Assembly (NCBI GenBank): GCA_945947035.1
Contig: CAMEXD010000004.1
Coordinates: 2,362 to 66,361 of the forward strand
Direction: 5' to 3'
DNA from: an uncultured Mycoplasma sp.
GTDB taxonomy: Bacteria; Bacillota_I; Bacilli_A; RF39; UBA660
DNA: 64,000 bases
Under the pieces are notes generated by a model, which saw only the letters and a list, made by a program, of their open reading frames with translations, was not told where the DNA came from and made no database searches. This document shows, one piece after another, positions 28,161-64,000 of the stretch (its first letter is position 1; each line of letters starts with the position of its first letter). Position numbers and translations under genes: made by a program.

Positions 28161-28902
28161 ATATAGTAAATTATTGTGTTTTGAAATTCCAGAGGGGATG
28201 CATAACACAGATAAAATATTTATAAAAGATGGTAAATTATTTAAAATATTTAGTGAAAATAGTTTTATTGAAGAAAAAGAAAGAAATATTGCATTCTTAA
28301 TGAATACAAAAATTCCATGTACACCATTAATTTATGATAAACTTTATTCTAATGGAGAATTTGTAGGATATATTATGGAGTACATTCCAAATGCTTTAAC
28401 ATTTAGACAAGCATTAAGTGAAGATATACCACATGATTTGAAAATAGCAGCGATAAGAGAGATTTATGTTGCTTTAAAATATTTTCATAGTGAAAATATA
28501 TATTTAGGAGATGTTCATTCTGATAATATGTTATTAACTGAATCTGGAAAGGGATATATTATTGATTTAGAAGAAGTAAGATTTCCAGGTGATGAATATA
28601 AGTTTAAACAATGCTATTTAATTTCTCCTAATAATAATTCAAATAGAATAAATGTGCCATCACAATATACCGATAATGTTAAAGTAATGATTTCATCTTT
28701 ATCTCTTTTATTAGGTAAAGATTTAGAAAAATATATATCAAAGCAAAAGCATGATATTAATTTAGAACAATTATTTAATGAAGTGATCATGCCTTTAAAC
28801 GATTCATATTTAAATGAATACTTTTATAAGTTAATGAACGAGGAATCTGTTCCTTATTTTTCGGATTATTATTTACCAGAATTAAATAAAATAAAAAAAT
28901 AA
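28129..28902 (+). CDS. protein-kinase-like/aminoglycoside-phosphotransferase-like fold protein
   Basis: HSDNMLL (catalytic loop H.DxxxxN-like) and IIDLEEV (DFG-equivalent). Confidence 0.4.
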   Translation: MRKIMEISKSEYSKLLCFEIPEGMHNTDKIFIKDGKLFKIFSENSFIEEKERNIAFLMNTKIPCTPLIYDKLYSNGEFVGYIMEYIPNALTFRQALSEDIPHDLKIAAIREIYVALKYFHSENIYLGDVHSDNMLLTESGKGYIIDLEEVRFPGDEYKFKQCYLISPNNNSNRINVPSQYTDNVKVMISSLSLLLGKDLEKYISKQKHDINLEQLFNEVIMPLNDSYLNEYFYKLMNEESVPYFSDYYLPELNKIKK

Positions 28903-46455: not shown

Positions 46456-46926
46456 ATGAGTGATAGTCCTAAAAGGAGGAAATATTTTGATAATCCTTAT
46501 GAAATTAGAATTATTAATGAGAAGTATTTTATCTGCTTTAAGGATAATAAAAATAAAATGCAAGAAATAGAAGTTAGTTCAAAAATATATAAGATATTTG
46601 ATGATTCTGAACTACATGATTTATCAGAATTAAATGAATATGATAGACATATAGAACATTCTGAAATTTTTGATATATCACTTTATCATAGAAGTAATGA
46701 AGAAATGTATTCTTTAGAAAAAGAGGTTGAGGATAAGATTCTTAATGAAGAATTAAGAGATTGTATTAGAACACTACCAGATGTTCAAAGAAGAAGGATT
46801 ATTAAATATTATTTTGATGATAAAAATGAATATGAAATAGCTGAAGAAGAAGGAACAACTCATCAAGCAGTAAATAAATCTTTAAAGCAAGCTCGAGAAA
46901 AATTGAGACAAATTTTAAAAAAATAG
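46456..46926 (+). CDS. sigma-70 region-4 (HTH) domain regulator, ICE-associated
   Basis: C-terminus LRDCIRTLPDVQRRRIIKYYFDDKNEYEIAEEEGTTHQAVNKSLKQAREKLR matches sigma-70 region 4. N-terminal part lacks region 2. Confidence 0.55.
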   Translation: MSDSPKRRKYFDNPYEIRIINEKYFICFKDNKNKMQEIEVSSKIYKIFDDSELHDLSELNEYDRHIEHSEIFDISLYHRSNEEMYSLEKEVEDKILNEELRDCIRTLPDVQRRRIIKYYFDDKNEYEIAEEEGTTHQAVNKSLKQAREKLRQILKK

Positions 46927-46960
46927 AAATTTAGGGTTGCTATTTTGCTTATGAGTGAGG

Positions 46961-47010
46961 AAACAAGTGAGAGGGTTAATTATTTAATTTTTCTCACTTG
47001 TTTATTTTCA
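46961..47010 (+). terminator. terminator: 12-bp stem AAACAAGTGAGA/TCTCACTTGTTT with T-rich tail
   Basis: Perfect 12-bp inverted repeat 46961-46972/46992-47003, then TTTATTTTC. Confidence 0.55.
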
Positions 47011-47149
47011 AGTTTGTTCTTTGACAATTTTATATTCATTCATTAAATACATTCCTATTATTAATAGCACTGTAATTGGTTCGCTTGCGATTAAAACCAG
47101 ATTATAAAAATAGATAGCAACTATTTTGCGATGACGAATAATAGGTATA

Positions 47150-47300
47150 ATGATACTTCTGTCCAGCCACAACCTCAAGTAATGGGGGCAGTTCTGTGAG
47201 AACCACAGAGAGGTGAGATGCCTATGGAACTAATTAGCTATTAGTCATTTAATGATTTCCAGCCGAGGGGTTCGGGGAAAAATATCGGTGAAGTAAAAAA
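47150..47300 (+). ncRNA. GC-rich structured 5' leader or small RNA candidate upstream of ORF 47319
   Basis: Local GC around 45% against a roughly 25% background. Hairpin TCTGTG-AGAAC-CACAGA nested in CCTC...GAGG, CTAAT-TAGCT-ATTAG, CCGA-GGGGT-TCGG. Duplicated CCAGCC boxes at 47163 and 47259. Weak TTGCGA/TATAAT promoter-like hexamers upstream. Confidence 0.25.
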
Positions 47301-47318
47301 TATAAATAAAAGGAAAAG

Positions 47319-47534
47319 GTGATTCAAATGAAAAAATATGATGTGAAAATTAAGGTGGTAAAGGAACACGATATAATAGTTAGTGCAACTTGTAGAGAAG
47401 AAGCAATTAGTAAGGTAGATGAATTAGTTGCTGGTTCAGGAATTCAATATTTAGATATTCCTAATTTTACAAAGCATTATATTATTATAGATATTGATAA
47501 GAAACCTATATTCAAAAGAAAGCATCATAGATGA
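47319..47534 (+). CDS. small hypothetical protein
   Basis: RBS AAAGGTGATTCAAATG. 71 aa basic C-terminus. Confidence 0.3.
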   Translation: MIQMKKYDVKIKVVKEHDIIVSATCREEAISKVDELVAGSGIQYLDIPNFTKHYIIIDIDKKPIFKRKHHR

Positions 47535-47573
47535 TTTGTGTTTTTGAAAAAATGATGGTAGCATCAAAGTGAG

Positions 47574-56194: not shown

Positions 56195-58558
56195 ATGAAT
56201 AGAAGAATTAAAAATGCTAAAACATTTACTAATATTAAATGTATTGGCGATGATGGATTATTAGAACTAAAAAATGGTGGATATGCTTCTTTAATAGAAA
56301 TTAAAGCAGTTGATTTATCATTATCTAGTAATCAAGAGAAAACCAATTTCTTTAATTCATTAAAAGTTTTATATCAAATTAAAGATTTGAATTTAAAATG
56401 TTATAAACTTGATGAGCCAATTAATTTAAATAATAATAAATTGAATTTATCTAAACTTATTGAAAAACTAAAGAATTGTGCTAGAAAAGTATTTCTATTA
56501 AACGAAAGAAAAAGTTTGATAGAAGAATTAGAAGAGAATAATTTTACTGTTTCTAGTATTTATTATTTAGTTGTAATAGCAAAAGATTTAAACATATTAG
56601 AAAGACAACTAGATGAAATAGAAGATTTACTCGCTAATCTTCAACCTAAAATAACAGCAGAAATAATTAATAATAGATTAGAAATATATAAATTTTTATC
56701 TAATTTATATATGTGTAAAAATCCACTTGATTTATTAATGTGGGCAGATTTAATGGAACTAATTGTTCCGTTAAATATTTCTGAAAGAACTAATATGTTA
56801 AAAATAGATGACAATGAAGTTCAAATGGTAACAATTAAAAATATTCCACCATTTGTAGATGAATTGTTTTTTGAAGAGATATTTAATTATCCAAATGTTA
56901 GAAGTTGTATCAATATTAAGGATGCGATAGATCAAGATGAATTAATCAGGTGGGTTAATTCACAATATCAGTTTTTATTATCAGATAGAAATACTACTAA
57001 AAAATTAAGTGATGCAACAGAACTTGATACTCAAAAAGAAAATTTTCAATTACTTATGAATGATATAAAAAATGGTGATGAAAAAATAAAAGAAGTATCT
57101 TTAATTTTAATGGTTACTGGTAATAAAAAAGAACGAGATGAAATAATCAGAGATTTAAAAAGAATAGTTGAAAGGTATCAAATAAAATTAGATATTCCAA
57201 GACTTCGTCAAATGGAAACTTTTCAATGTTTTGATATAACTAATCTTTCTTTAAAGGATTATTCAGTTTATTTACCAACACTTACTTTAAGTGCAGGTTT
57301 TCCATTCACTAAAACATATTTTAATGATTCAACAGGATATATGCTAGGAGTTGATATTCATACAAGTTTACCAATCTTCTTTGATCCATTTGTTTTAAAT
57401 AATAAAAGAACTTCTCATAATGTAGCAATTATATCTTCAACCGGTGGAGGTAAAAGTTTTACTATGAAGAAAATGATTGTTAATGAATATGCAAGAGGAA
57501 CTAAAATTTTTATTTTTGATGCAGAAAATGGGTATGAAAAATTAGTTAAAGCAAATGATGGAGAATATATAGATTTGTATTCTAAAAAAGGTGGAATGAT
57601 TAATCCACTTCAAATAAGATATATTCCAAGCGATGAGAAACAAGAAACAAAAGAAACAGATTGTCCTCTAGCTAAACACTTAGGATTTTTAGATGCATTT
57701 TTCAAAAGTGCTTTTGATGATATTAAAGAAAAAGAATTAGTTATGCTTTTAGCAATACTTGAGGATTTATATAATAAAAAAGGTATTTATAAAAATACTT
57801 CAATAAATACTTTGCAAGAATTAAGACCAGAAGATTATCCTATATTTTCTGATTTATATAATTATCTTCCAGAATATAAAAAGAAACTAGATAGTATAGA
57901 AAAGCAAAAATTAGTAGATCAGTTAGATGTGTTGTTATCCAGATTTTTAACTGGAACTGATTCATTTTTATTTAATGGTCATACAAATATTGATTTAAAT
58001 AATGATTTAATTGCATTTAATCTTCAAGAACTACTTTATAGTGGTAATCAGAGATTAATAAATACTCAAACATTAAATCTATTAACTTATTTAAATAATA
58101 GTATTGTTGCAAATAAAATAATCAATGTAAAGAGAAATTCTGGTGATAAACAACATATTAGTATTGTTGTTGATGAATTTCATTTATATATTGATGAAAA
58201 CAATAATGAAGTAATTAAGAATTTTGGACAACTTGCAAGAAGATGCAGGAAGTACAACACTAATTTGATTTTATCTAGTCAATGTATATCTGACTTTTTA
58301 GGAAATGCAACAGTTCTTCGTCATGCTTCTGCTATATTTAATAACTGTCAATATACTATGATAGGAATGTTAAAGGAAGATGATTTAAAAGCATATTTAG
58401 AATTATTTAAAAACAATCCTTTAACTGATACTCAAAAAGCATTTCTTTTAGGTGCAAGACGAGGTGAGTTCTTACTTAATATAGACAATAAAACTAGATT
58501 AAGAATATGGATAAGAGCTACCGAAACGGAAAGAGAAATGATGGGGGAGATTGAATAA
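56195..58558 (+). CDS. VirB4/TraE/TcpF-family conjugative ATPase
   Basis: Walker A STGGGKSF, Walker B IVVDEFH, 787 aa. Confidence 0.85.
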   Translation: MNRRIKNAKTFTNIKCIGDDGLLELKNGGYASLIEIKAVDLSLSSNQEKTNFFNSLKVLYQIKDLNLKCYKLDEPINLNNNKLNLSKLIEKLKNCARKVFLLNERKSLIEELEENNFTVSSIYYLVVIAKDLNILERQLDEIEDLLANLQPKITAEIINNRLEIYKFLSNLYMCKNPLDLLMWADLMELIVPLNISERTNMLKIDDNEVQMVTIKNIPPFVDELFFEEIFNYPNVRSCINIKDAIDQDELIRWVNSQYQFLLSDRNTTKKLSDATELDTQKENFQLLMNDIKNGDEKIKEVSLILMVTGNKKERDEIIRDLKRIVERYQIKLDIPRLRQMETFQCFDITNLSLKDYSVYLPTLTLSAGFPFTKTYFNDSTGYMLGVDIHTSLPIFFDPFVLNNKRTSHNVAIISSTGGGKSFTMKKMIVNEYARGTKIFIFDAENGYEKLVKANDGEYIDLYSKKGGMINPLQIRYIPSDEKQETKETDCPLAKHLGFLDAFFKSAFDDIKEKELVMLLAILEDLYNKKGIYKNTSINTLQELRPEDYPIFSDLYNYLPEYKKKLDSIEKQKLVDQLDVLLSRFLTGTDSFLFNGHTNIDLNNDLIAFNLQELLYSGNQRLINTQTLNLLTYLNNSIVANKIINVKRNSGDKQHISIVVDEFHLYIDENNNEVIKNFGQLARRCRKYNTNLILSSQCISDFLGNATVLRHASAIFNNCQYTMIGMLKEDDLKAYLELFKNNPLTDTQKAFLLGARRGEFLLNIDNKTRLRIWIRATETEREMMGEIE

Positions 58559-59346
58559 TGTCAACGAGAAGCAGTATTGCCATTAAAAGAAAAGATGGAA
58601 CAGTTCAAAGTGTATATTGTCATAGTGATGGTTATTTAGAATATAACGGAGTTATGCTTAATAAATTTTATAAAGATCAGAAGAAGATAAATTCGCTTAT
58701 TAATTTAGGTGATTTATCTTTTTTAGATAGAAAAGTTAATCCAGAAAAAGGAATAACACACAGTTTTGATTATGAAAAAAGACAAGAGGGTGTAACTGTT
58801 GCTTATGTTAGAGATAGAAATGATAAAAATACTCAAAAGCATATTCATAAATCGGTAGATGATTATATTAAATCATTTGCTAATTCATGGCAAGAATATG
58901 CTTATTTGTATGATGAAGAAAATCATAAATGGTTATGGTCTGAAATACCTATTGATAATAAAGATGGAATGAACTTTATACCATTAGAAGATACATTAAA
59001 TAAAAAAGGCTTAATGGAACGAGTGGATAAAAAATTCAATGATATAATATGGCAACAAATTGAATTTGAAAAAGGATTTGATATAGGAACTTATAATGAA
59101 GTTTATGAATCAGACGAAGATGCTTATTATGACTATCAAACTTTATTATCAACTCCAAAAGGAATAAAAGGACATATAGAGGCATTAAAAGGTTATATTG
59201 ATGATATGGAAAATGATAATACAGAATTTGTTAAAACAGTACCTAAGAAATTTATCAAGATAGCTAAAAACAATATTAAGTCTTTAGAAAAATATGCAAA
59301 GGAAGTTTATCCTTATTTTGATGAAGTTGAGTTTCCAGAAATATAG
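58558..59346 (+). CDS. hypothetical conjugation-module protein
   Basis: 262 aa, soluble, start overlaps the VirB4 stop. Confidence 0.3.
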   Translation: MSTRSSIAIKRKDGTVQSVYCHSDGYLEYNGVMLNKFYKDQKKINSLINLGDLSFLDRKVNPEKGITHSFDYEKRQEGVTVAYVRDRNDKNTQKHIHKSVDDYIKSFANSWQEYAYLYDEENHKWLWSEIPIDNKDGMNFIPLEDTLNKKGLMERVDKKFNDIIWQQIEFEKGFDIGTYNEVYESDEDAYYDYQTLLSTPKGIKGHIEALKGYIDDMENDNTEFVKTVPKKFIKIAKNNIKSLEKYAKEVYPYFDEVEFPEI

Positions 59347-59355
59347 GAGTTAATA

Positions 59356-60270
59356 TTGAAGAAAAAAGTATTAAAAATCATTTTGGGTTCATCAACAGGA
59401 TTAATTTTTATGTCAATTATAATAATTGTTCCTGTTCTTATGTTATTGGATTTTTTCGGTGCTAATATTACAGATGGCTATATTGAAAATAATAGTGATT
59501 ATGCAGATATGTATCAAAGTGTTGTTAGAAAAAATGTTAAAGCTGGAAATGGCTATGTTTCTCTAAGTAGGATTTTATATTTCTACTTAGAGAACAATCA
59601 ATTAACTTTTGATATGATTTATACTGATAATTTAGATACTGATTTAAAGCAAGAAAAACCAATATCAGAAGTATGTGAATTGAATAGATATAAAATATAT
59701 TCTGTTTGCAATAAAGATGAACTTGAAGATTCTGGACAAATAAATGAGATTCAAAATAAACCTTTTACAAGTCCACTTGATTATGACAAATTAAATGTAA
59801 CGAGTTTTTTTATGCAAGAGAGAATTGTATATGGAACTGCTGATGTTCATCCTGCTTGGGATTTTGCATCACCAGCTCAAACACCAATTTATTCGGTATG
59901 TGATGGTAAAGTAGAAACAGTATCATTTAGATATTCTACTAACACTATTGATAAAAGTGGTGGAGGTGGAAATCAGATAGTAGTGTCTTGTGATGTAGAT
60001 GATATTACTTATAAAGTTAGATATGCTCATCTATATCCCGATTCTTCTACTGTAAAAGAAGGGGATATGGTAACTCAAAATCAAAAAATAGCAACTGTTG
60101 GAACAACAGGATATTCAACAGGAAACCACTTACATTTTCAAGTATCAAAGGATGGAACACCGGTCGATGGATTAAGTTTAATAGATTTTACTAATACTAA
60201 TTATACTAATCCATTTGTAATACCATCTAATCCAAATTATGGACTAGATAATGGATTGTTTTATCCTTAA
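59356..60270 (+). CDS. membrane-anchored M23 (LytM) peptidase, T4SS cell-wall hydrolase
   Basis: N-terminal TM. HPAWD (HxxxD) and GNHLHFQV (HxH) M23 motifs. Confidence 0.8.
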   Translation: MKKKVLKIILGSSTGLIFMSIIIIVPVLMLLDFFGANITDGYIENNSDYADMYQSVVRKNVKAGNGYVSLSRILYFYLENNQLTFDMIYTDNLDTDLKQEKPISEVCELNRYKIYSVCNKDELEDSGQINEIQNKPFTSPLDYDKLNVTSFFMQERIVYGTADVHPAWDFASPAQTPIYSVCDGKVETVSFRYSTNTIDKSGGGGNQIVVSCDVDDITYKVRYAHLYPDSSTVKEGDMVTQNQKIATVGTTGYSTGNHLHFQVSKDGTPVDGLSLIDFTNTNYTNPFVIPSNPNYGLDNGLFYP

Positions 60271-60349
60271 ATCTATATATAAAAAATAAGTATAGATGGA
60301 TTAAATACACACTTGTTGTGGATTATTTTGCAAGTGCAAAATGTGAAAT

Positions 60350-60416
60350 AATATCACTAAAATTGCTGTTTTTACTTATAAAAATGCTAGTAGTGATATT
60401 GTTTCCTTTATCCTGC
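60350..60416 (+). other. candidate oriT: 10-bp inverted repeat AATATCACTA-N31-TAGTGATATT followed 9 nt later by ATCCTGC (MOBP/Q-type nic consensus)
   Basis: Upstream dyad ATTTTGCA-AG-TGCAAAAT at 60325-60342. Sits in front of an RHH gene. Nic core YATCCTG|Y at 60408-60416. Confidence 0.4.
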
Positions 60417-60467
60417 TTACAAATAGTGCTTATTTTTAATATATTTCAATCCATAAAAGGAGGGATT

Positions 60468-60647
60468 ATGTCACATTATTTATTAAGAATAAGAAGTGAA
60501 GTTTACGATAGAATTAGATTATTCGCTAAACAAGAAAATATAAGTATAAACAAAATGATAATCAAACTTATTTCAATAGGTATGATTACATATTTAAAAG
60601 GAGGAATGAGTAATGAAAATGTCGTTAACCAAGTTAATAGCAAATGA
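60468..60647 (+). CDS. ribbon-helix-helix (CopG/Arc-like) protein, candidate relaxosome accessory factor
   Basis: Strong RBS AAAGGAGGG then ATG 60468. MSHYLLRIRSEVYDRIRLFAKQENISINKMIIKLI has the beta-strand/helix-helix pattern. Confidence 0.45.
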   Translation: MSHYLLRIRSEVYDRIRLFAKQENISINKMIIKLISIGMITYLKGGMSNENVVNQVNSK

Positions 60648-61032
60648 TATCATTAACTATGGAATGAATGATACTACAGCTGATCAATATATAGTTTATT
60701 TAGATAGTTATTTAGATGATTTTGATGAGAAATCTAAAAAATATATTTTAGATAATTTAGATCAGATAGTAGAAGATGTAGAATCAAATGATAAAGTTTG
60801 TGATTTAGAATATGATAAAAAAGAAAAATCTTTTGATATGATTTTTTACTGGGATTGTTTATTTAATCCAGTTGATGAATTAGTAATGAATGTATTAAAA
60901 GAAAAAGAAATGGGAGATAAAATTAGAATTTATGAAGTTAAAGGTATTGCTCAAGAAGTTCTAGATGATGAAGGAACAAAGAATTTAGCTTATGAAAAAA
61001 TCTTGAATTATCATACGGAGTTTGAACTATGA
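60613..61032 (+). CDS. acidic hypothetical protein
   Basis: 139 aa. No motif. Confidence 0.3.
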   Translation: MKMSLTKLIANDIINYGMNDTTADQYIVYLDSYLDDFDEKSKKYILDNLDQIVEDVESNDKVCDLEYDKKEKSFDMIFYWDCLFNPVDELVMNVLKEKEMGDKIRIYEVKGIAQEVLDDEGTKNLAYEKILNYHTEFEL

Positions 61033-61421
61033 AGTTAAGGTATTATACTAATACCGAGATTGAAAAAATTAAAAGCAATATGTTTGTAATAGATGTATTG
61101 CATAAAAGAAGAATAGAGTATGATTATGTATTTAAATTATGGTGTGTAATGATGAGATTAAAGTTTCCAGAATTAACTGGTAAACAGATTTTTGAAAGAG
61201 CTGGATTTGATACTTCTATACTTCATGATTATCTTCCATATAGAAGAATTGGTGAATGGGTTAAAAGTTATAAAAAATTTGGAGTATATTATTTTATTCC
61301 AGAAGATGAACCTTATCATTCTATAAAAGTTAAAACTAAAAAACAAAAACTAGATATTTTTAAATTAAAACTTTTAAAGGTTGTTTTAAAAGATTTAAAA
61401 AAATTAGATAAGGATAAATAA
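61029..61421 (+). CDS. hypothetical protein
   Basis: 130 aa basic. Confidence 0.3.
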   Translation: MKLRYYTNTEIEKIKSNMFVIDVLHKRRIEYDYVFKLWCVMMRLKFPELTGKQIFERAGFDTSILHDYLPYRRIGEWVKSYKKFGVYYFIPEDEPYHSIKVKTKKQKLDIFKLKLLKVVLKDLKKLDKDK

Positions 61422-61696
61422 TGTTTAGGGAAGAATACAATTATAGATATGATATTCAAGTAAAGGTTGAATGTGAACATTGTGAGAATAGTTTTATTAG
61501 ACATGATGTTTTAAAAACAACTTATCCAGAAACAAAAGAAAGCTTAGAAGAAATGTATGAAAATAGTTGTGAAGGATTATCAGAAGAAGAAACGACTCAT
61601 TGTGAAAAATGTGATGGTTATATGTTTGAAACTGAAGTTATTAAATTCTTTGAAACTCCAATTACAAAGGAGATAGGCGATATTGAAATTGGATAG
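61421..61696 (+). CDS. zinc-ribbon protein (two CxxC pairs)
   Basis: CEHCEN ... HCEKCDG. Confidence 0.3.
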   Translation: MFREEYNYRYDIQVKVECEHCENSFIRHDVLKTTYPETKESLEEMYENSCEGLSEEETTHCEKCDGYMFETEVIKFFETPITKEIGDIEIG

Positions 61697-62006
61697 ACAT
61701 ATAAAAGTAGATGAAGAACTTCACAATAAGATTTTATTACTGTCTAAAGAATCTAAACTTTCGTATTCTGATGAAGTAAGTTTATTAGTAGAAGAAGCAC
61801 TATCTAATAGAATTAAGCAAACACAGTTAGATAAGATGCAAAATGATATTTTATATTTAGTTAAAAAGGTTAATTTACTATATTTATTAGTTAAGCAGAT
61901 GTATTCAGATTTTAATATTAATCCAAATAATATTACTGATCCTAAAACTAGTCCTGCTTTAAATGAATTTTTAAGAAAGGTTAAAGTTAATAGATTAGAT
62001 GACTAG
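61683..62006 (+). CDS. hypothetical protein, possible RHH/MobC-like accessory
   Basis: N-terminus HIKVDEELHNKILLLSKESKLSYSDEVSLLVEEAL. Confidence 0.25.
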   Translation: MKLDRHIKVDEELHNKILLLSKESKLSYSDEVSLLVEEALSNRIKQTQLDKMQNDILYLVKKVNLLYLLVKQMYSDFNINPNNITDPKTSPALNEFLRKVKVNRLDD

Positions 62007-62724
62007 TCCTAAAGTAATATTCAATTGTAGATTTACTCATGCTTTTAATAGAAAAGAAGCTCATTATACTAAAAAACAAATTGAAGGATTAAAAAAGAAA
62101 ATTGCTCGTAAATTTGATTATTTTTCAAATGAAGAAAAAAGAGTAATGAATCTATTTGAATACTATGTTGGTAATTTAACTAAAAAAGAAACAATGAATC
62201 TTGTAATTGAAAATGGTAAATATGCTACTCCTGAAGAAATAGAAAGAAGGAAGAAAAGATTTATCAAATATGCAGAAAAATCTAACTTATGGCAAGGTGT
62301 CATAAGCTTTAATAATGAGTATTTAACTCAAAATATTACATTACAGGATTTGGAACAGGAAGTAATTAAAAATGTGCTTCCTCGTTTCTTTAAAAAAATG
62401 GGATTTAAAGATATAGATAAAATGGCTTATAATTTATCTCTTCATACTGATACTGATAACTTGCATATTCATTTTAGTTTTATAGAGAAGCAACCTAACT
62501 ATATTTATTATAATAAAAAAGTTGATTATAGAAGAAAAGGTGAACTATCACAAGAAGAAATTGATTTCTTAAAAAATGAAGTTGTCATTGCTGTAGAAAG
62601 GAATCAATTTCTTTCACCTATGATAAAAATGACTAATGATGAAATAGAAAAATTAAAAAAACATTTTAATCCAAAAGAAAAGAATTTTATTTTATATGAT
62701 AAAAAGGATTTATTATTAGAATAA
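61999..62724 (+). CDS. HUH relaxase (MobA/VirD2-type, PF03432-like), N-terminal 241 codons up to an in-frame TAA
   Basis: Histidine-triad motif HTDTDNLHIHFSFI (HxDxxNxHxH). Tyr23 candidate in AHYTKKQ. The same frame continues after TAA 62722-62724 as 62725..63312. Confidence 0.65.
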   Translation: MTSPKVIFNCRFTHAFNRKEAHYTKKQIEGLKKKIARKFDYFSNEEKRVMNLFEYYVGNLTKKETMNLVIENGKYATPEEIERRKKRFIKYAEKSNLWQGVISFNNEYLTQNITLQDLEQEVIKNVLPRFFKKMGFKDIDKMAYNLSLHTDTDNLHIHFSFIEKQPNYIYYNKKVDYRRKGELSQEEIDFLKNEVVIAVERNQFLSPMIKMTNDEIEKLKKHFNPKEKNFILYDKKDLLLE

Positions 62725-63312
62725 AAAATATTAAGAGTTGGTAAATTACTTTATCAAGAAAGAAAAGATAAATATAAAAGAATAAAATTTAATTCTTTAA
62801 GAGATGAAGAAATAAAATCATTAGTGAAAGATATTAAAAAGTATTTATTTAATAGCAAAGGTGAATTTTATAATGATTATGTTGATTTTAAAAGAAGTTT
62901 AAAGAGTATAAATGATTATCTATTTAAGGTTAATATTGATAATAATGTTTCTAATATTGTTATCAATGACAAATACACTACTGAAAAAGAACAATATACA
63001 GATAATTATATATTTAATGCTATTGTTAATCATGCTAATTATTTCTTTAAAAAGAATTCAAAAAAATATCATACTTTAAATGAAGATGATATTTTAAGAG
63101 AAATATTTTTAAATGAATATAAAAAAAATAAACAACAAACAAGAGCTACAATTTTAGAAAACTATTTAACAAATACTGTTAAAACTCAAAAATATAAGAA
63201 TCGTTATAAAGTAAGAAATGCTATTAGAAATATAAATAATGAAATGGAAGAAGCTCAAAAAGAGTTTAGTAAATTATTCCAACCTGATAATTCATATTCT
63301 AAAAATTATTAA
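62725..63312 (+). CDS. relaxase C-terminal continuation (same frame as 61999..62724, separated by a single TAA). Called as ORF 62824..63312
   Basis: Frame identity (both frame 1). Open from 62725. Basic/Asn-rich tail typical of relaxase C-terminal regions. Confidence 0.4.
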   Translation, partial: KILRVGKLLYQERKDKYKRIKFNSLRDEEIKSLVKDIKKYLFNSKGEFYNDYVDFKRSLKSINDYLFKVNIDNNVSNIVINDKYTTEKEQYTDNYIFNAIVNHANYFFKKNSKKYHTLNEDDILREIFLNEYKKNKQQTRATILENYLTNTVKTQKYKNRYKVRNAIRNINNEMEEAQKEFSKLFQPDNSYSKNY

Positions 63313-63336
63313 AGAGAGGAGATGGTTTAATGCCAA

Positions 63337-64000
63337 ATTGGACTATGAATAAAATAACTTGTAAAAAATCAATTGGTGATAAAATACTAACTAAAACTGA
63401 TGATGGATATTCATTTGACTTTAATAAATTAATTCCAATGCCAAAAGAAATGAATATTCCAGCAGGTTCTACAGAACATATTGCAGTAGCTAGTTATTAT
63501 CATTCACTTGATAAACAAGGTAAAAGAGATTTAGAAGACCAACTTGAAAAAAGTAAGGTCTTTTTTGATTCTGATTATTGGAGAAGATATGAAACATATA
63601 TTGATGATTACACAAAAGAACCAGATAAATTAAAAAAGGAAGAAGAAAATTTTAAATATAGAGATAATGAACAAATTAAAAAGTTTAGTTCTTATTCAGA
63701 ATTAGGTAAACAGTATGTAGATAATATCATCAATTATGGATATTCTCAATGGTATGATTGGTGTAGTGAAGTATGGGGAACAAAATGGAATGTTGAAGAT
63801 GAAGTAGATGTTGAATATTATCCAGAAAGTGATGAATATGAAATAGAATTCAACACAGCTTGGTGTGTTCCTTATGGAATAGTTGAAGAATATAGTAAGC
63901 TTTGCTCTGATGAGGAATTTGATTGGCAATATATTAATGAAGATTATGATGGACATCATCATTTGCGAAAACATAATGAAGTAATAAGTGATACTGTCAT
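63337..64000 (+). CDS. hypothetical ICE protein, 5' partial view (continues past window end)
   Basis: RBS GAGAGGAG then ATG 63337. Open to 64000. Contains SEVWGTKWNV ... FNTAWCVP blocks. Confidence 0.4.

Follow-up and report, generated by a model that had tools for sequence, protein, structure and literature searches.

A probable origin of transfer of MOBMG/MOBL type upstream of a MobL/MobP2-family relaxase gene in an uncultured gut Bacilli lineage

Gene content and sequence features of the locus

The DNA under study, a stretch of 64,000 nt from an uncultured Mycoplasma sp. (GTDB lineage RF39, UBA660; assembly GCA_945947035.1, contig CAMEXD010000004.1), is referred to as the window; coordinates are positions in it and refer to the + strand unless stated. 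Its subject is the region 60271–60467, which separates an M23 peptidase gene (59356–60270) from a small gene for a 59-aa ribbon-helix-helix (RHH)-like protein (60468–60647), upstream of a MobL/MobP2-family relaxase gene (61999–63312). An earlier note, made from the sequence alone, had called an origin of transfer (oriT) here. This call was borne out by comparison with relatives: architecture and position are those of the oriTs of the plasmids pWBG749 and pLS20, and they are kept in 64 of 68 related loci. Taken as a whole, the region is in all likelihood best explained as the oriT of a Gram-positive-type conjugative element, of MOBMG/MOBL type, a reading built on the observed sequence features, on their conservation and covariation, and on the homology of layout and core to delimited oriTs.

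The region contains a palindrome, ATTTTGCA-AG-TGCAAAAT (60325–60342), a long imperfect hairpin (60345–60405) and the segment CTTTATCCTGCTTACA (60406–60421, + strand), which comprises the core and the presumed nick region. The equivalent of the published 11-bp core, TTTATCCTGCT, lies at 60407–60417, and the word TTATCCTGCTTAC was read directly at 60408–60420 (+ strand). A ribosome-binding site, AAAGGAGGG (60456–60464, + strand), precedes ATG 60468. The dyad, the word and the ribosome-binding site with its start codon were present as the earlier note had described them, and so was a perfect 10-bp inverted repeat, AATATCACTA/TAGTGATATT (60350–60359 and 60391–60400), which extends to 15 bp with one mismatch (60345–60359/60391–60405). 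The supposed '31-nt loop' between the repeat arms turned out not to be a loop: it is largely paired, and the extended repeat as stem base together with an inner stem-loop makes up one long imperfect hairpin. As single-stranded DNA, 60318–60425 folded into the small and the long hairpin with a free energy of −16.1 kcal/mol (z = −4.8; 0 of 200 shuffles folded as well). The minimum-energy fold of the window sequence was a three-way branch, closed by the stem GGAT/ATCC.

Conservation and covariation in related loci

A 'distant' blastn search with 60300–60470 returned short AT-rich chance hits only, and megablast of 59300–64000 against plasmids gave no match. A protein search yielded many relaxase homologues of about 420 aa, and a genome scan then gave 80 loci (designated L001 and so on) from gut metagenome-assembled genomes labelled Bacilli, Tenericutes, Mollicutes or Clostridia. 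The layout was counted in the 68 related loci with at least 1.3 kb of upstream DNA (relaxase identity 39–95%); pair counts and the alignment (A2) were based on 56 distinct sequences.

The order M23 gene, gap, RHH gene, further genes, relaxase was kept in most of the 80 loci. Palindrome, long hairpin and core, in this order and on the relaxase strand, were found in 64 of the 68 (57 by a relaxed pattern and 7 with TTTCGTAAGTACGAAA), between the M23 peptidase gene and an RHH-like gene of 52–74 aa, with a pyrimidine-rich spacer between hairpin and core. No block of the alignment is more conserved than the palindrome (consensus TTTTGCAAGTGCAAAA, with the compensated variants TTTCGTAAGTACGAAA and TTTCGCAAGTGCGAAA); it was present and 100% paired in all 56 distinct sequences, and three of its pairs had undergone compensatory changes. 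The stretch from palindrome to core measures 63–67 nt and was hairpin-forming in 64/64 sequences, with a stem sequence wholly different between clades; in the alignment, 11 of 13 stem pairs were changed on both sides. For palindrome and hairpin together, 86.7% of cells pair, compared with 72.5% in shuffles and 39–59% when the partner was slid, and double-sided changes were counted in 146 cells (48 in shuffles). The outer stem GGAT/ATCC, formed between the 5′ flank and the core, was considered as a further conserved element and rejected: it comprises 4 bp at best, and it was not counted as conserved because its register differs between clades (offsets 104, 105 and 107 in A2).

Within the window alone, the heptamer ATCCTGC occurs 11 times (2.7 expected) and YATCCTGY 8 times (4.3 expected), and 30 short inverted repeats were found in 321 nt of AT-rich DNA here. 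These single-sequence statistics are weak, and the case beyond chance therefore rests on conservation and covariation in the relatives and not on the motif. A chance coincidence of AT-rich inverted repeats with a common heptamer, to which the same counts would lend themselves, is refuted by order, spacing and pairing that are kept in 64 loci down to 39% relaxase identity, and its probability is practically nil.

The strong covariation would also suit a structured RNA (leader, small RNA or terminator) or a single-strand initiation site for complementary-strand synthesis, the more so as read-through from the upstream operon would transcribe the region and one clade has a T-run after the core. 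No Rfam family matched, the scan of the region giving one sub-threshold microRNA hit; no terminator-like site was found on the + strand of the region, and no T-run follows the hairpin in the window. Moreover, the same element works as DNA in the mobilisation assays of pWBG749 and pLS20 (PMC4652767, PMC5313138), and an RNA or initiation site is considered highly improbable.

The small gene at 60468 had been hidden in a 109-aa open reading frame (ORF) called from GTG 60318, whose 5′ part (60318–60467, + strand) overlies palindrome, hairpin and core. Of 32 relatives checked, 27 have an in-frame stop 0–57 nt 5′ of the orthologous start; as the upstream frame is closed in these relatives, the 109-aa ORF was judged an artefact with its real start at ATG 60468 and a non-coding first part, as the earlier note had suspected. 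Orthologues of 52–74 aa start 51–100 nt 3′ of the core in about 50 loci, behind ribosome-binding sites of GGAGG type equivalent to that of the window.

Further repeats flank these elements. In the window, TGGATT occurs three times in direct orientation (60252–60257, inside the end of the M23 gene, 60297–60302 and 60319–60324, + strand), the copies being candidate binding words for an accessory protein, and a long-range inverted repeat brackets the core, its 16-nt left arm (60275–60290) being 94% complementary to the right arm (60429–60444). The right arm and an inverted TGGATT (AATCCA, 60448–60453) occupy 60429–60454 just 5′ of the ribosome-binding site and are likely an operator. The best exact bracketing match of the window was not significant (9 nt, equalled in 44 of 200 shuffles). 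Most relatives have bracketing inverted repeats of 12–20 nt, matched by only 0–1 of 200 shuffles; their words are clade-specific, and the right arm is always located 20–57 nt 3′ of the core, beside the ribosome-binding site of the RHH gene. Clade-specific repeated words at the equivalent place in relatives are TAGGATGAAAACAC, GTAGCCACTTTC and ATGGATTGAAAC. The flanking repeats of the window are likely to be accessory-protein or operator sites.

RHH proteins are typically autorepressors, and the region could be read as a promoter and operator only, through which the RHH protein autoregulates an RHH–relaxase operon, with no role in DNA transfer. The typical behaviour of such proteins and the clade-specific bracketing repeats, one arm of which lies beside the ribosome-binding site, are consistent with this, as is a weak promoter-like site, CTTACA-18-TATATT (60416–60445, + strand; 9 of 12 matches), which overlaps the core and is a possible promoter at most; promoter-like sites were no more numerous in the region than in shuffles. 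Left unexplained by an operator alone are an invariant core shared with mobilisable oriTs whose relaxases are about 21–24% identical, and a 60-nt hairpin of fixed length and free sequence. The two roles are not exclusive, many oriTs overlapping the relaxosome promoter, and a purely regulatory site is deemed very unlikely.

The core and its counterparts in pWBG749-type plasmids

In the 56 aligned sequences, TTAT, C60413 and T60417 (TTAT-C--T) are invariant, and the conserved block stops right after the core tetranucleotide. The ATCCTG word of the window occupies the alignment columns of the family's core, in which TTTATCCTGCT (window clade), CTTATCCTGCT, CTTATCCTGAT, CTTATGCCCAT, CTTATGCTCAT, CTTATGCTCCT and CTTATGCTCTT were found; a graded series runs from TTTATCCTGCT via CTTATCCTGAT, CTTATGCCCAT and CTTATGCTCAT to CTTATGCTCTT, the exact form of which is carried by four loci. 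CTTATGCTCTT is the published oriT core of Staphylococcus aureus pWBG749, Enterococcus pMG2200 and pHTbeta, Bacillus thuringiensis pMC189 and Lactococcus garvieae pGL5 (PMC4652767), and likewise that of pCS1. The window core is identical to this 11-mer at 7 of 11 positions without gaps and, judged by sequence, is a variant of the published core, not that core itself.

Within the tetranucleotide, the bases at 60412 and 60415 (A2 columns 99 and 102) switch together with no exception, being either C..G or G..C; CCTG was found in 29 sequences and GCTC or GCCC in 27. As L059 has CCTG though L060 and L073, of the same hairpin type, have GCCC or GCTC, the switch between CCTG and GCYC occurred more than once.

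In the plasmids named above, the core is located 3′ of a branched hairpin (inverted repeats IR1–IR3) and upstream of the RHH gene smpO and the relaxase gene smpP (PMC4652767). IR2 is a variable specificity repeat; SmpO binds IR2 and an upstream site, and specificity is set by IR2 and SmpO (PMC8136818). The same layout was predicted in the clostridial plasmids pCS1, pCLL and pCP13 (PMC5770547). The pWBG749 sequence, as read here, holds upstream repeats, a small hairpin, IR2, ATTCCCCTTATGCTCTTACGG, smpO and a relaxase annotated as MobP2.

The window resembles this family in having its last secretion-system gene separated by non-coding DNA from a small RHH-like gene, with a MobP2 relaxase following on the same strand; in its small conserved hairpin, variable hairpin (IR2), pyrimidine-rich spacer and core, with repeated words upstream; in the position of the core and TTAT-C-T, common to both; and in an RHH profile that aligns to SmpO. 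The palindrome is the counterpart of IR1 and the long hairpin that of IR2, the two together standing for the branched hairpin, with a weak equivalent of IR3. As in MOBMG/MOBL-type oriTs, IR2-like divergence is found alongside a fixed palindrome and a fixed TTAT/C/T. The window differs in an IR2 of about 61 nt (about 20 nt in pWBG749), an unrelated IR1 (TTTTGCAAGTGCAAAA vs GTCTGGCTTTGCCAGAC), an outer IR3 stem of at most 4 bp (GGAT/ATCC) that is out of register across clades, and relaxases just 21% identical; its host belongs to an uncultured AT-rich gut Bacilli/'Tenericutes' lineage, and the element is seemingly chromosomal. Based on the shared layout and the graded core, the region is placed in the pWBG749/pLS20 oriT lineage as a member with a changed core tetranucleotide, and the comparison of sequences makes it highly probable that it is an oriT of MOBMG/MOBL type, the type of pWBG749, pHTbeta, pCS1 and pLS20.

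Two short matches with pWBG749 were also recorded. The 12 nt ATGATATCACTA are common to L001 (4343–4354, 5′ arm of the long repeat) and pWBG749 (L083; about 28228–28239, − strand, ossA region); by a rough estimate this match is within chance after multiple comparisons, and it was not used as evidence. An arm in L005 contains GATAGCA, identical to ossB49, possibly by chance after many comparisons.

Comparison with RP4 and MOBQ origins

The oriTs of RP4 and R751 and the T-DNA borders of Ti plasmids are of MOBP11 type with the nic site ATCCTG|C; in RP4, the RHH accessory protein TraJ binds the inverted repeat, and the relaxase has a His triad of HxDxxNxHxH type. The nick regions of RP4 and the T-borders are reportedly the subject of work by Pansegrau, Lanka and Waters. 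The window shares with RP4 eight identical bases, TATCCTGC (60409–60416), preceded on that strand by an inverted repeat, which in its extended form reaches 60405, about 10 nt short of the presumed nick; in RP4-type oriTs the repeat lies about 8 nt 5′ of the nick. The window has the sequence of an RP4-type nic, YATCCTG|Y, with a nearby inverted repeat, but its relaxase lies outside the TraI(RP4) family (NCBIfam TraI_MobP_relax 17.7 bits, cut-off 250). A further contrast concerns the relaxase operon, which in RP4 is oriented away from the transferred 5′ end and enters last, whereas here it would be the first to enter, and relatives have GCTC or GCCC in place of CCTG (27/56 sequences). Of the MOBP/MOBQ, RP4-type assignment made in the earlier note, motif and repeat geometry stood and the family did not, the closest oriT being of MOBMG/MOBL type; by sequence, the likeness to RP4 is a resemblance within the wider MOBP superfamily and not membership.

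In MOBQ oriTs (RSF1010/pIP501 type), nic is AAGTGCGCCCT|, 3′ of an inverted repeat. A MOBQ oriT was considered and rejected: only AAGTGC is in common, inside the palindrome, and no GCGCCCT was found.

Relaxase and probable accessory proteins

The relaxase gene (61999–63312, + strand) encodes the His-triad motif HTDTDNLHIH at residues 149–158 of the ORF from 61999, 1.58 kb downstream of the core, where the earlier note had seen a relaxase with the motif HxDxxNxHxH. MobL and MobP2 were its best-scoring families (Pfam MobL 46.4 bits, cut-off 28.5; Pfam Relaxase 30.3 bits), and by tblastn it is about 22–30% identical to 'MobP2/MobL' relaxases of Bacillus, Listeria, Lactococcus, Enterococcus and Clostridium plasmids. 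H149, D153, H156 and H158 are invariant with RelLS20 (pLS20) and SmpP; the residue aligned to Tyr26 of RelLS20 is not a tyrosine, and the family-conserved tyrosines are Y41 and Y55. The gene has an in-frame TAA at 62722–62724, absent from the earlier note, and the N-terminal 241 aa before it hold the nuclease domain. The relaxase of L001, 95% identical, is encoded by an intact 437-aa ORF. The TAA may be a nonsense mutation, the mark of a split gene or a sequencing error, and the window copy may be defective or may need a relaxase in trans or from a relative. In one of the source genomes of the related loci, MGBC139354, two such elements are present (L001 and L046).

The 59-aa protein (60468–60647, + strand) is a probable RHH protein and, as such, a probable relaxosome accessory factor, SmpO/Aux1-like. 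The assignment is statistically weak. Pfam HicB scored 14.8 bits, below its cut-off of 21. With a profile of 18 orthologues, the top PDB matches were all RHH proteins (SSV 56B, Arc, TraM, CopG and Mnt) at weak E-values of 0.013–0.9, and hhalign of the RHH profile gave an E-value of 4e-5 and 69.5% probability for SmpO of pWBG749 (6.9% for Aux1 of pLS20). In the AlphaFold monomer (pLDDT 85), two long helices were predicted, with the N-terminus modelled as helical and without a β-strand; the RHH β-ribbon may form only between the subunits of a dimer.

A second small protein, of 107 aa (61683–62006, + strand), has an RHH-like N-terminus with pRN1 ORF56 (RHH; E-value 0.053) as best PDB match. The stop of its gene overlaps the relaxase ATG, which suggests translational coupling of the two, as for aux2/rel of pLS20.

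Predicted nick site and comparison with pLS20

The minimal pWBG749 oriT mobilises plasmids, and relaxase-mediated recombination junctions and truncations delimit its nick to 16 bp, CCTTATGCTCTTACGG, on the coding strand (PMC4652767). Given this delimitation and a conserved block that ends after the tetranucleotide, the nick of the window is predicted within 60406–60421 on the + strand, a placement that by analogy is more probable than any other though less secure than the oriT itself. An exact position at G60415|C60416 is put forward tentatively, with less than an even chance. In pWBG749, the relaxase is followed by genes for ArdC, topoisomerase and primase, a downstream gene content that fits coding-strand transfer there. 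Hallmark genes of a leading region, sought 3′ of the relaxase to fix the strand, were uninformative in L001 (DUF4313, protein kinase, DUF7695, helix-turn-helix protein) and L040 (DpnD/PcfM, DUF4313, coupling protein, β-lactamase-family protein). A second copy of the motif, ATCCTGCTT, at 59849–59857, 560 nt upstream of the core, encodes V-H-P-A-W-D with the HxxxD metal-binding motif of the M23 peptidase; it is there by coincidence of coding and was dismissed as a nick site.

For pLS20 of Bacillus subtilis, the MOBL prototype, a 362-bp fragment confers mobilisation (PMC5313138). As read here, this functional oriT holds CTGGTACCAC...GGTGCCAG followed by TTTCCCCTTATGCTCTTTCC on the coding strand; a pWBG749-type hairpin and the exact core CTTATGCTCTT were located at about 2690–2757 (L082, NC_015148), also on the coding strand. 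Upstream lie three direct TGTGCAT repeats, the target of Aux2; that of Aux1 is the TGGTACCA arm (PMC5675868). The window shares with pLS20 a relaxase of the same Pfam family (MobL), an oriT far upstream of the relaxase with small RHH genes between, a last small gene translationally coupled to the relaxase, and the sequence of upstream direct repeats, long branched hairpin and core (CTTATGCTCTT in pLS20, coding strand). The two RHH-like proteins of the window (59 and 107 aa) recall the two auxiliary proteins of pLS20; the RHH profile has weak similarity to Aux1, whereas the 107-aa protein showed no similarity to Aux2 detectable by BLASTP. Unlike the window, pLS20 has four genes between oriT and relaxase, and its published nick is in the opposite strand, within a GC-rich block that the window lacks.

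That nick was mapped on the template strand after GAATCGGGGGCCGG, at the start of the repeat GGCTTTTTGCtgccGCAAAAAGCC (PMC5313138), by the only biochemical nick mapping in the family. By analogy, the region could be an oriT nicked elsewhere or on the − strand, near the small TTTTGCA-type palindrome or 3′ of the core, with hairpin and core serving for binding or recognition only. The pLS20 repeat resembles the window palindrome ATTTTGCAAGTGCAAAAT, the most conserved block of the alignment, which favours such a nick. The repeat is located 3′ of the core in pLS20, however, and the palindrome 5′ of the long hairpin here, so the two are not positional equivalents, and the GC-rich pLS20 nick context had no counterpart in the 64 loci. 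In pWBG749, junctions and truncations leave only 16 bp of the coding strand, around the core, for the nick (PMC4652767), and a conserved block ending after the tetranucleotide is what would be expected with recognition 5′ of the nick. A nick outside the core is regarded as unlikely, if less so than the regulatory and RNA readings. Two lines of evidence are in conflict here, the conserved core lying inside the functional oriT of pLS20 and the published pLS20 nick outside that core.

Besides the abundance of the heptamer in the window, several points weigh against an oriT with a nick in the core. Run-off sequencing of relaxase-treated plasmid assigned the pLS20 nick to the template strand, at a distance of about 45 nt 3′ of the CTTATGCTC core (PMC5313138, restated in PMC8708921), and the orientation dependence of pLS20 mobilisation was interpreted as a template-strand nick (PMC5313138). 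The window core differs from the published 11-mer at 4 positions, the central tetranucleotide included. Covariation in inverted repeats is also expected of duplex sites for symmetric proteins, and a hairpin is not proven by it. The relaxase scored 61.6 bits with NCBIfam MobP2, under the curated cut-off of 200, and it is cut by the TAA at codon 242, where homologues have Glu and behind which the frame is open on to 63312.

Element context

G+C content of the window is about 25%, and the long ORFs of its 3′ third (from about 46 kb) are all on the + strand. Upstream of the region, genes for a thioester/SpaA adhesin, a sortase, a VirB4/TraG-type ATPase (56195–58558) and the M23 peptidase were found; the downstream order is 59-aa ORF, three small ORFs, 107-aa ORF, relaxase. 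At 46456–51604, a sigma-70 region-4 protein, a 939-aa thioester-domain/SpaA adhesin and a sortase are encoded, likely the left part of the element. Since genes for an MMPL transporter, an AMP-binding enzyme and a histidine kinase precede this part, the element appears to be chromosomal; megablast of 1–25000 found only housekeeping-type genes, e.g. trpS, which suggests a chromosomal context. A 91-aa protein (61421–61696) with two CxxC pairs is zinc-ribbon-like and was found by tblastn only in the closest relatives, L001–L003.

Four relatives have a variable gene slot of 0.4–1.1 kb, which runs from 10–25 nt 3′ of the core to just before the RHH gene (L005 3565–4706, L006 3580–4703, L007 3914–4703, L008 4127–4552). 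The slot genes are unrelated (a SWIM zinc-finger protein, an LSM-like protein and a small acidic protein), and the slot is possibly a hot-spot for cargo where the leading region starts.

Proposed mechanism and significance

We infer the binding partners, the nick with its strand and the direction of transfer as follows. The element would comprise the VirB4-like ATPase, M23 hydrolase, adhesin and sortase upstream of the region and the MobL/MobP2 relaxase downstream. The small RHH protein (60468–60647), perhaps together with the 61683–62006 protein, would bind the flanking clade-specific repeats, the core-proximal arm of the long repeat, or both, and would thereby set specificity and probably also repress the operon. 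The relaxase would recognise the hairpin and the conserved core on the + strand and cut inside CTTTATCCTGCTTACA, plausibly after G60415 as in ATCCTG|C of RP4. The + strand would then be transferred 5′ to 3′; with a + strand nick, the RHH and relaxase genes would be the first to reach the recipient and those of the secretion system would come last. Termination and re-ligation would depend on the hairpin at the 3′ end.

It is conceivable, as a more speculative extension, that the CCTG-core clade links the MOBMG/MOBL core (CTTATGCTC|TT) to the RP4/T-border nick (TATCCTG|C), that in all members of the family the coding strand is nicked directly behind the variable tetranucleotide, and that the coupled bases 60412/60415 are a specificity determinant read by the relaxase. 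If this link were true, the published position and strand of the pLS20 nick would have to be examined anew, and the true leading region would be formed by the genes 3′ of the core, including the variable slot of L005–L008.

As the type of oriT is already known, no new principle is involved; two points deserve a specialist's interest, namely the coupling between the outer bases of the core tetranucleotide and the disagreement with the pLS20 nick as published. The 64-locus comparison amounts to a natural mutagenesis of the MOBL/MOBMG oriT, which gives testable specificity determinants: the palindrome and TTAT-C-T are fixed, the hairpin stem and tetranucleotide positions 1 and 4 co-vary, and the flanking repeats are clade-specific. 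It also provides a usable oriT annotation for conjugative elements that form a widespread family among the AT-rich genomes of uncultured gut Bacilli/'Tenericutes', hosts that have no genetics and for which oriT-based vectors and predictions of mobilisable DNA depend on oriT calls.

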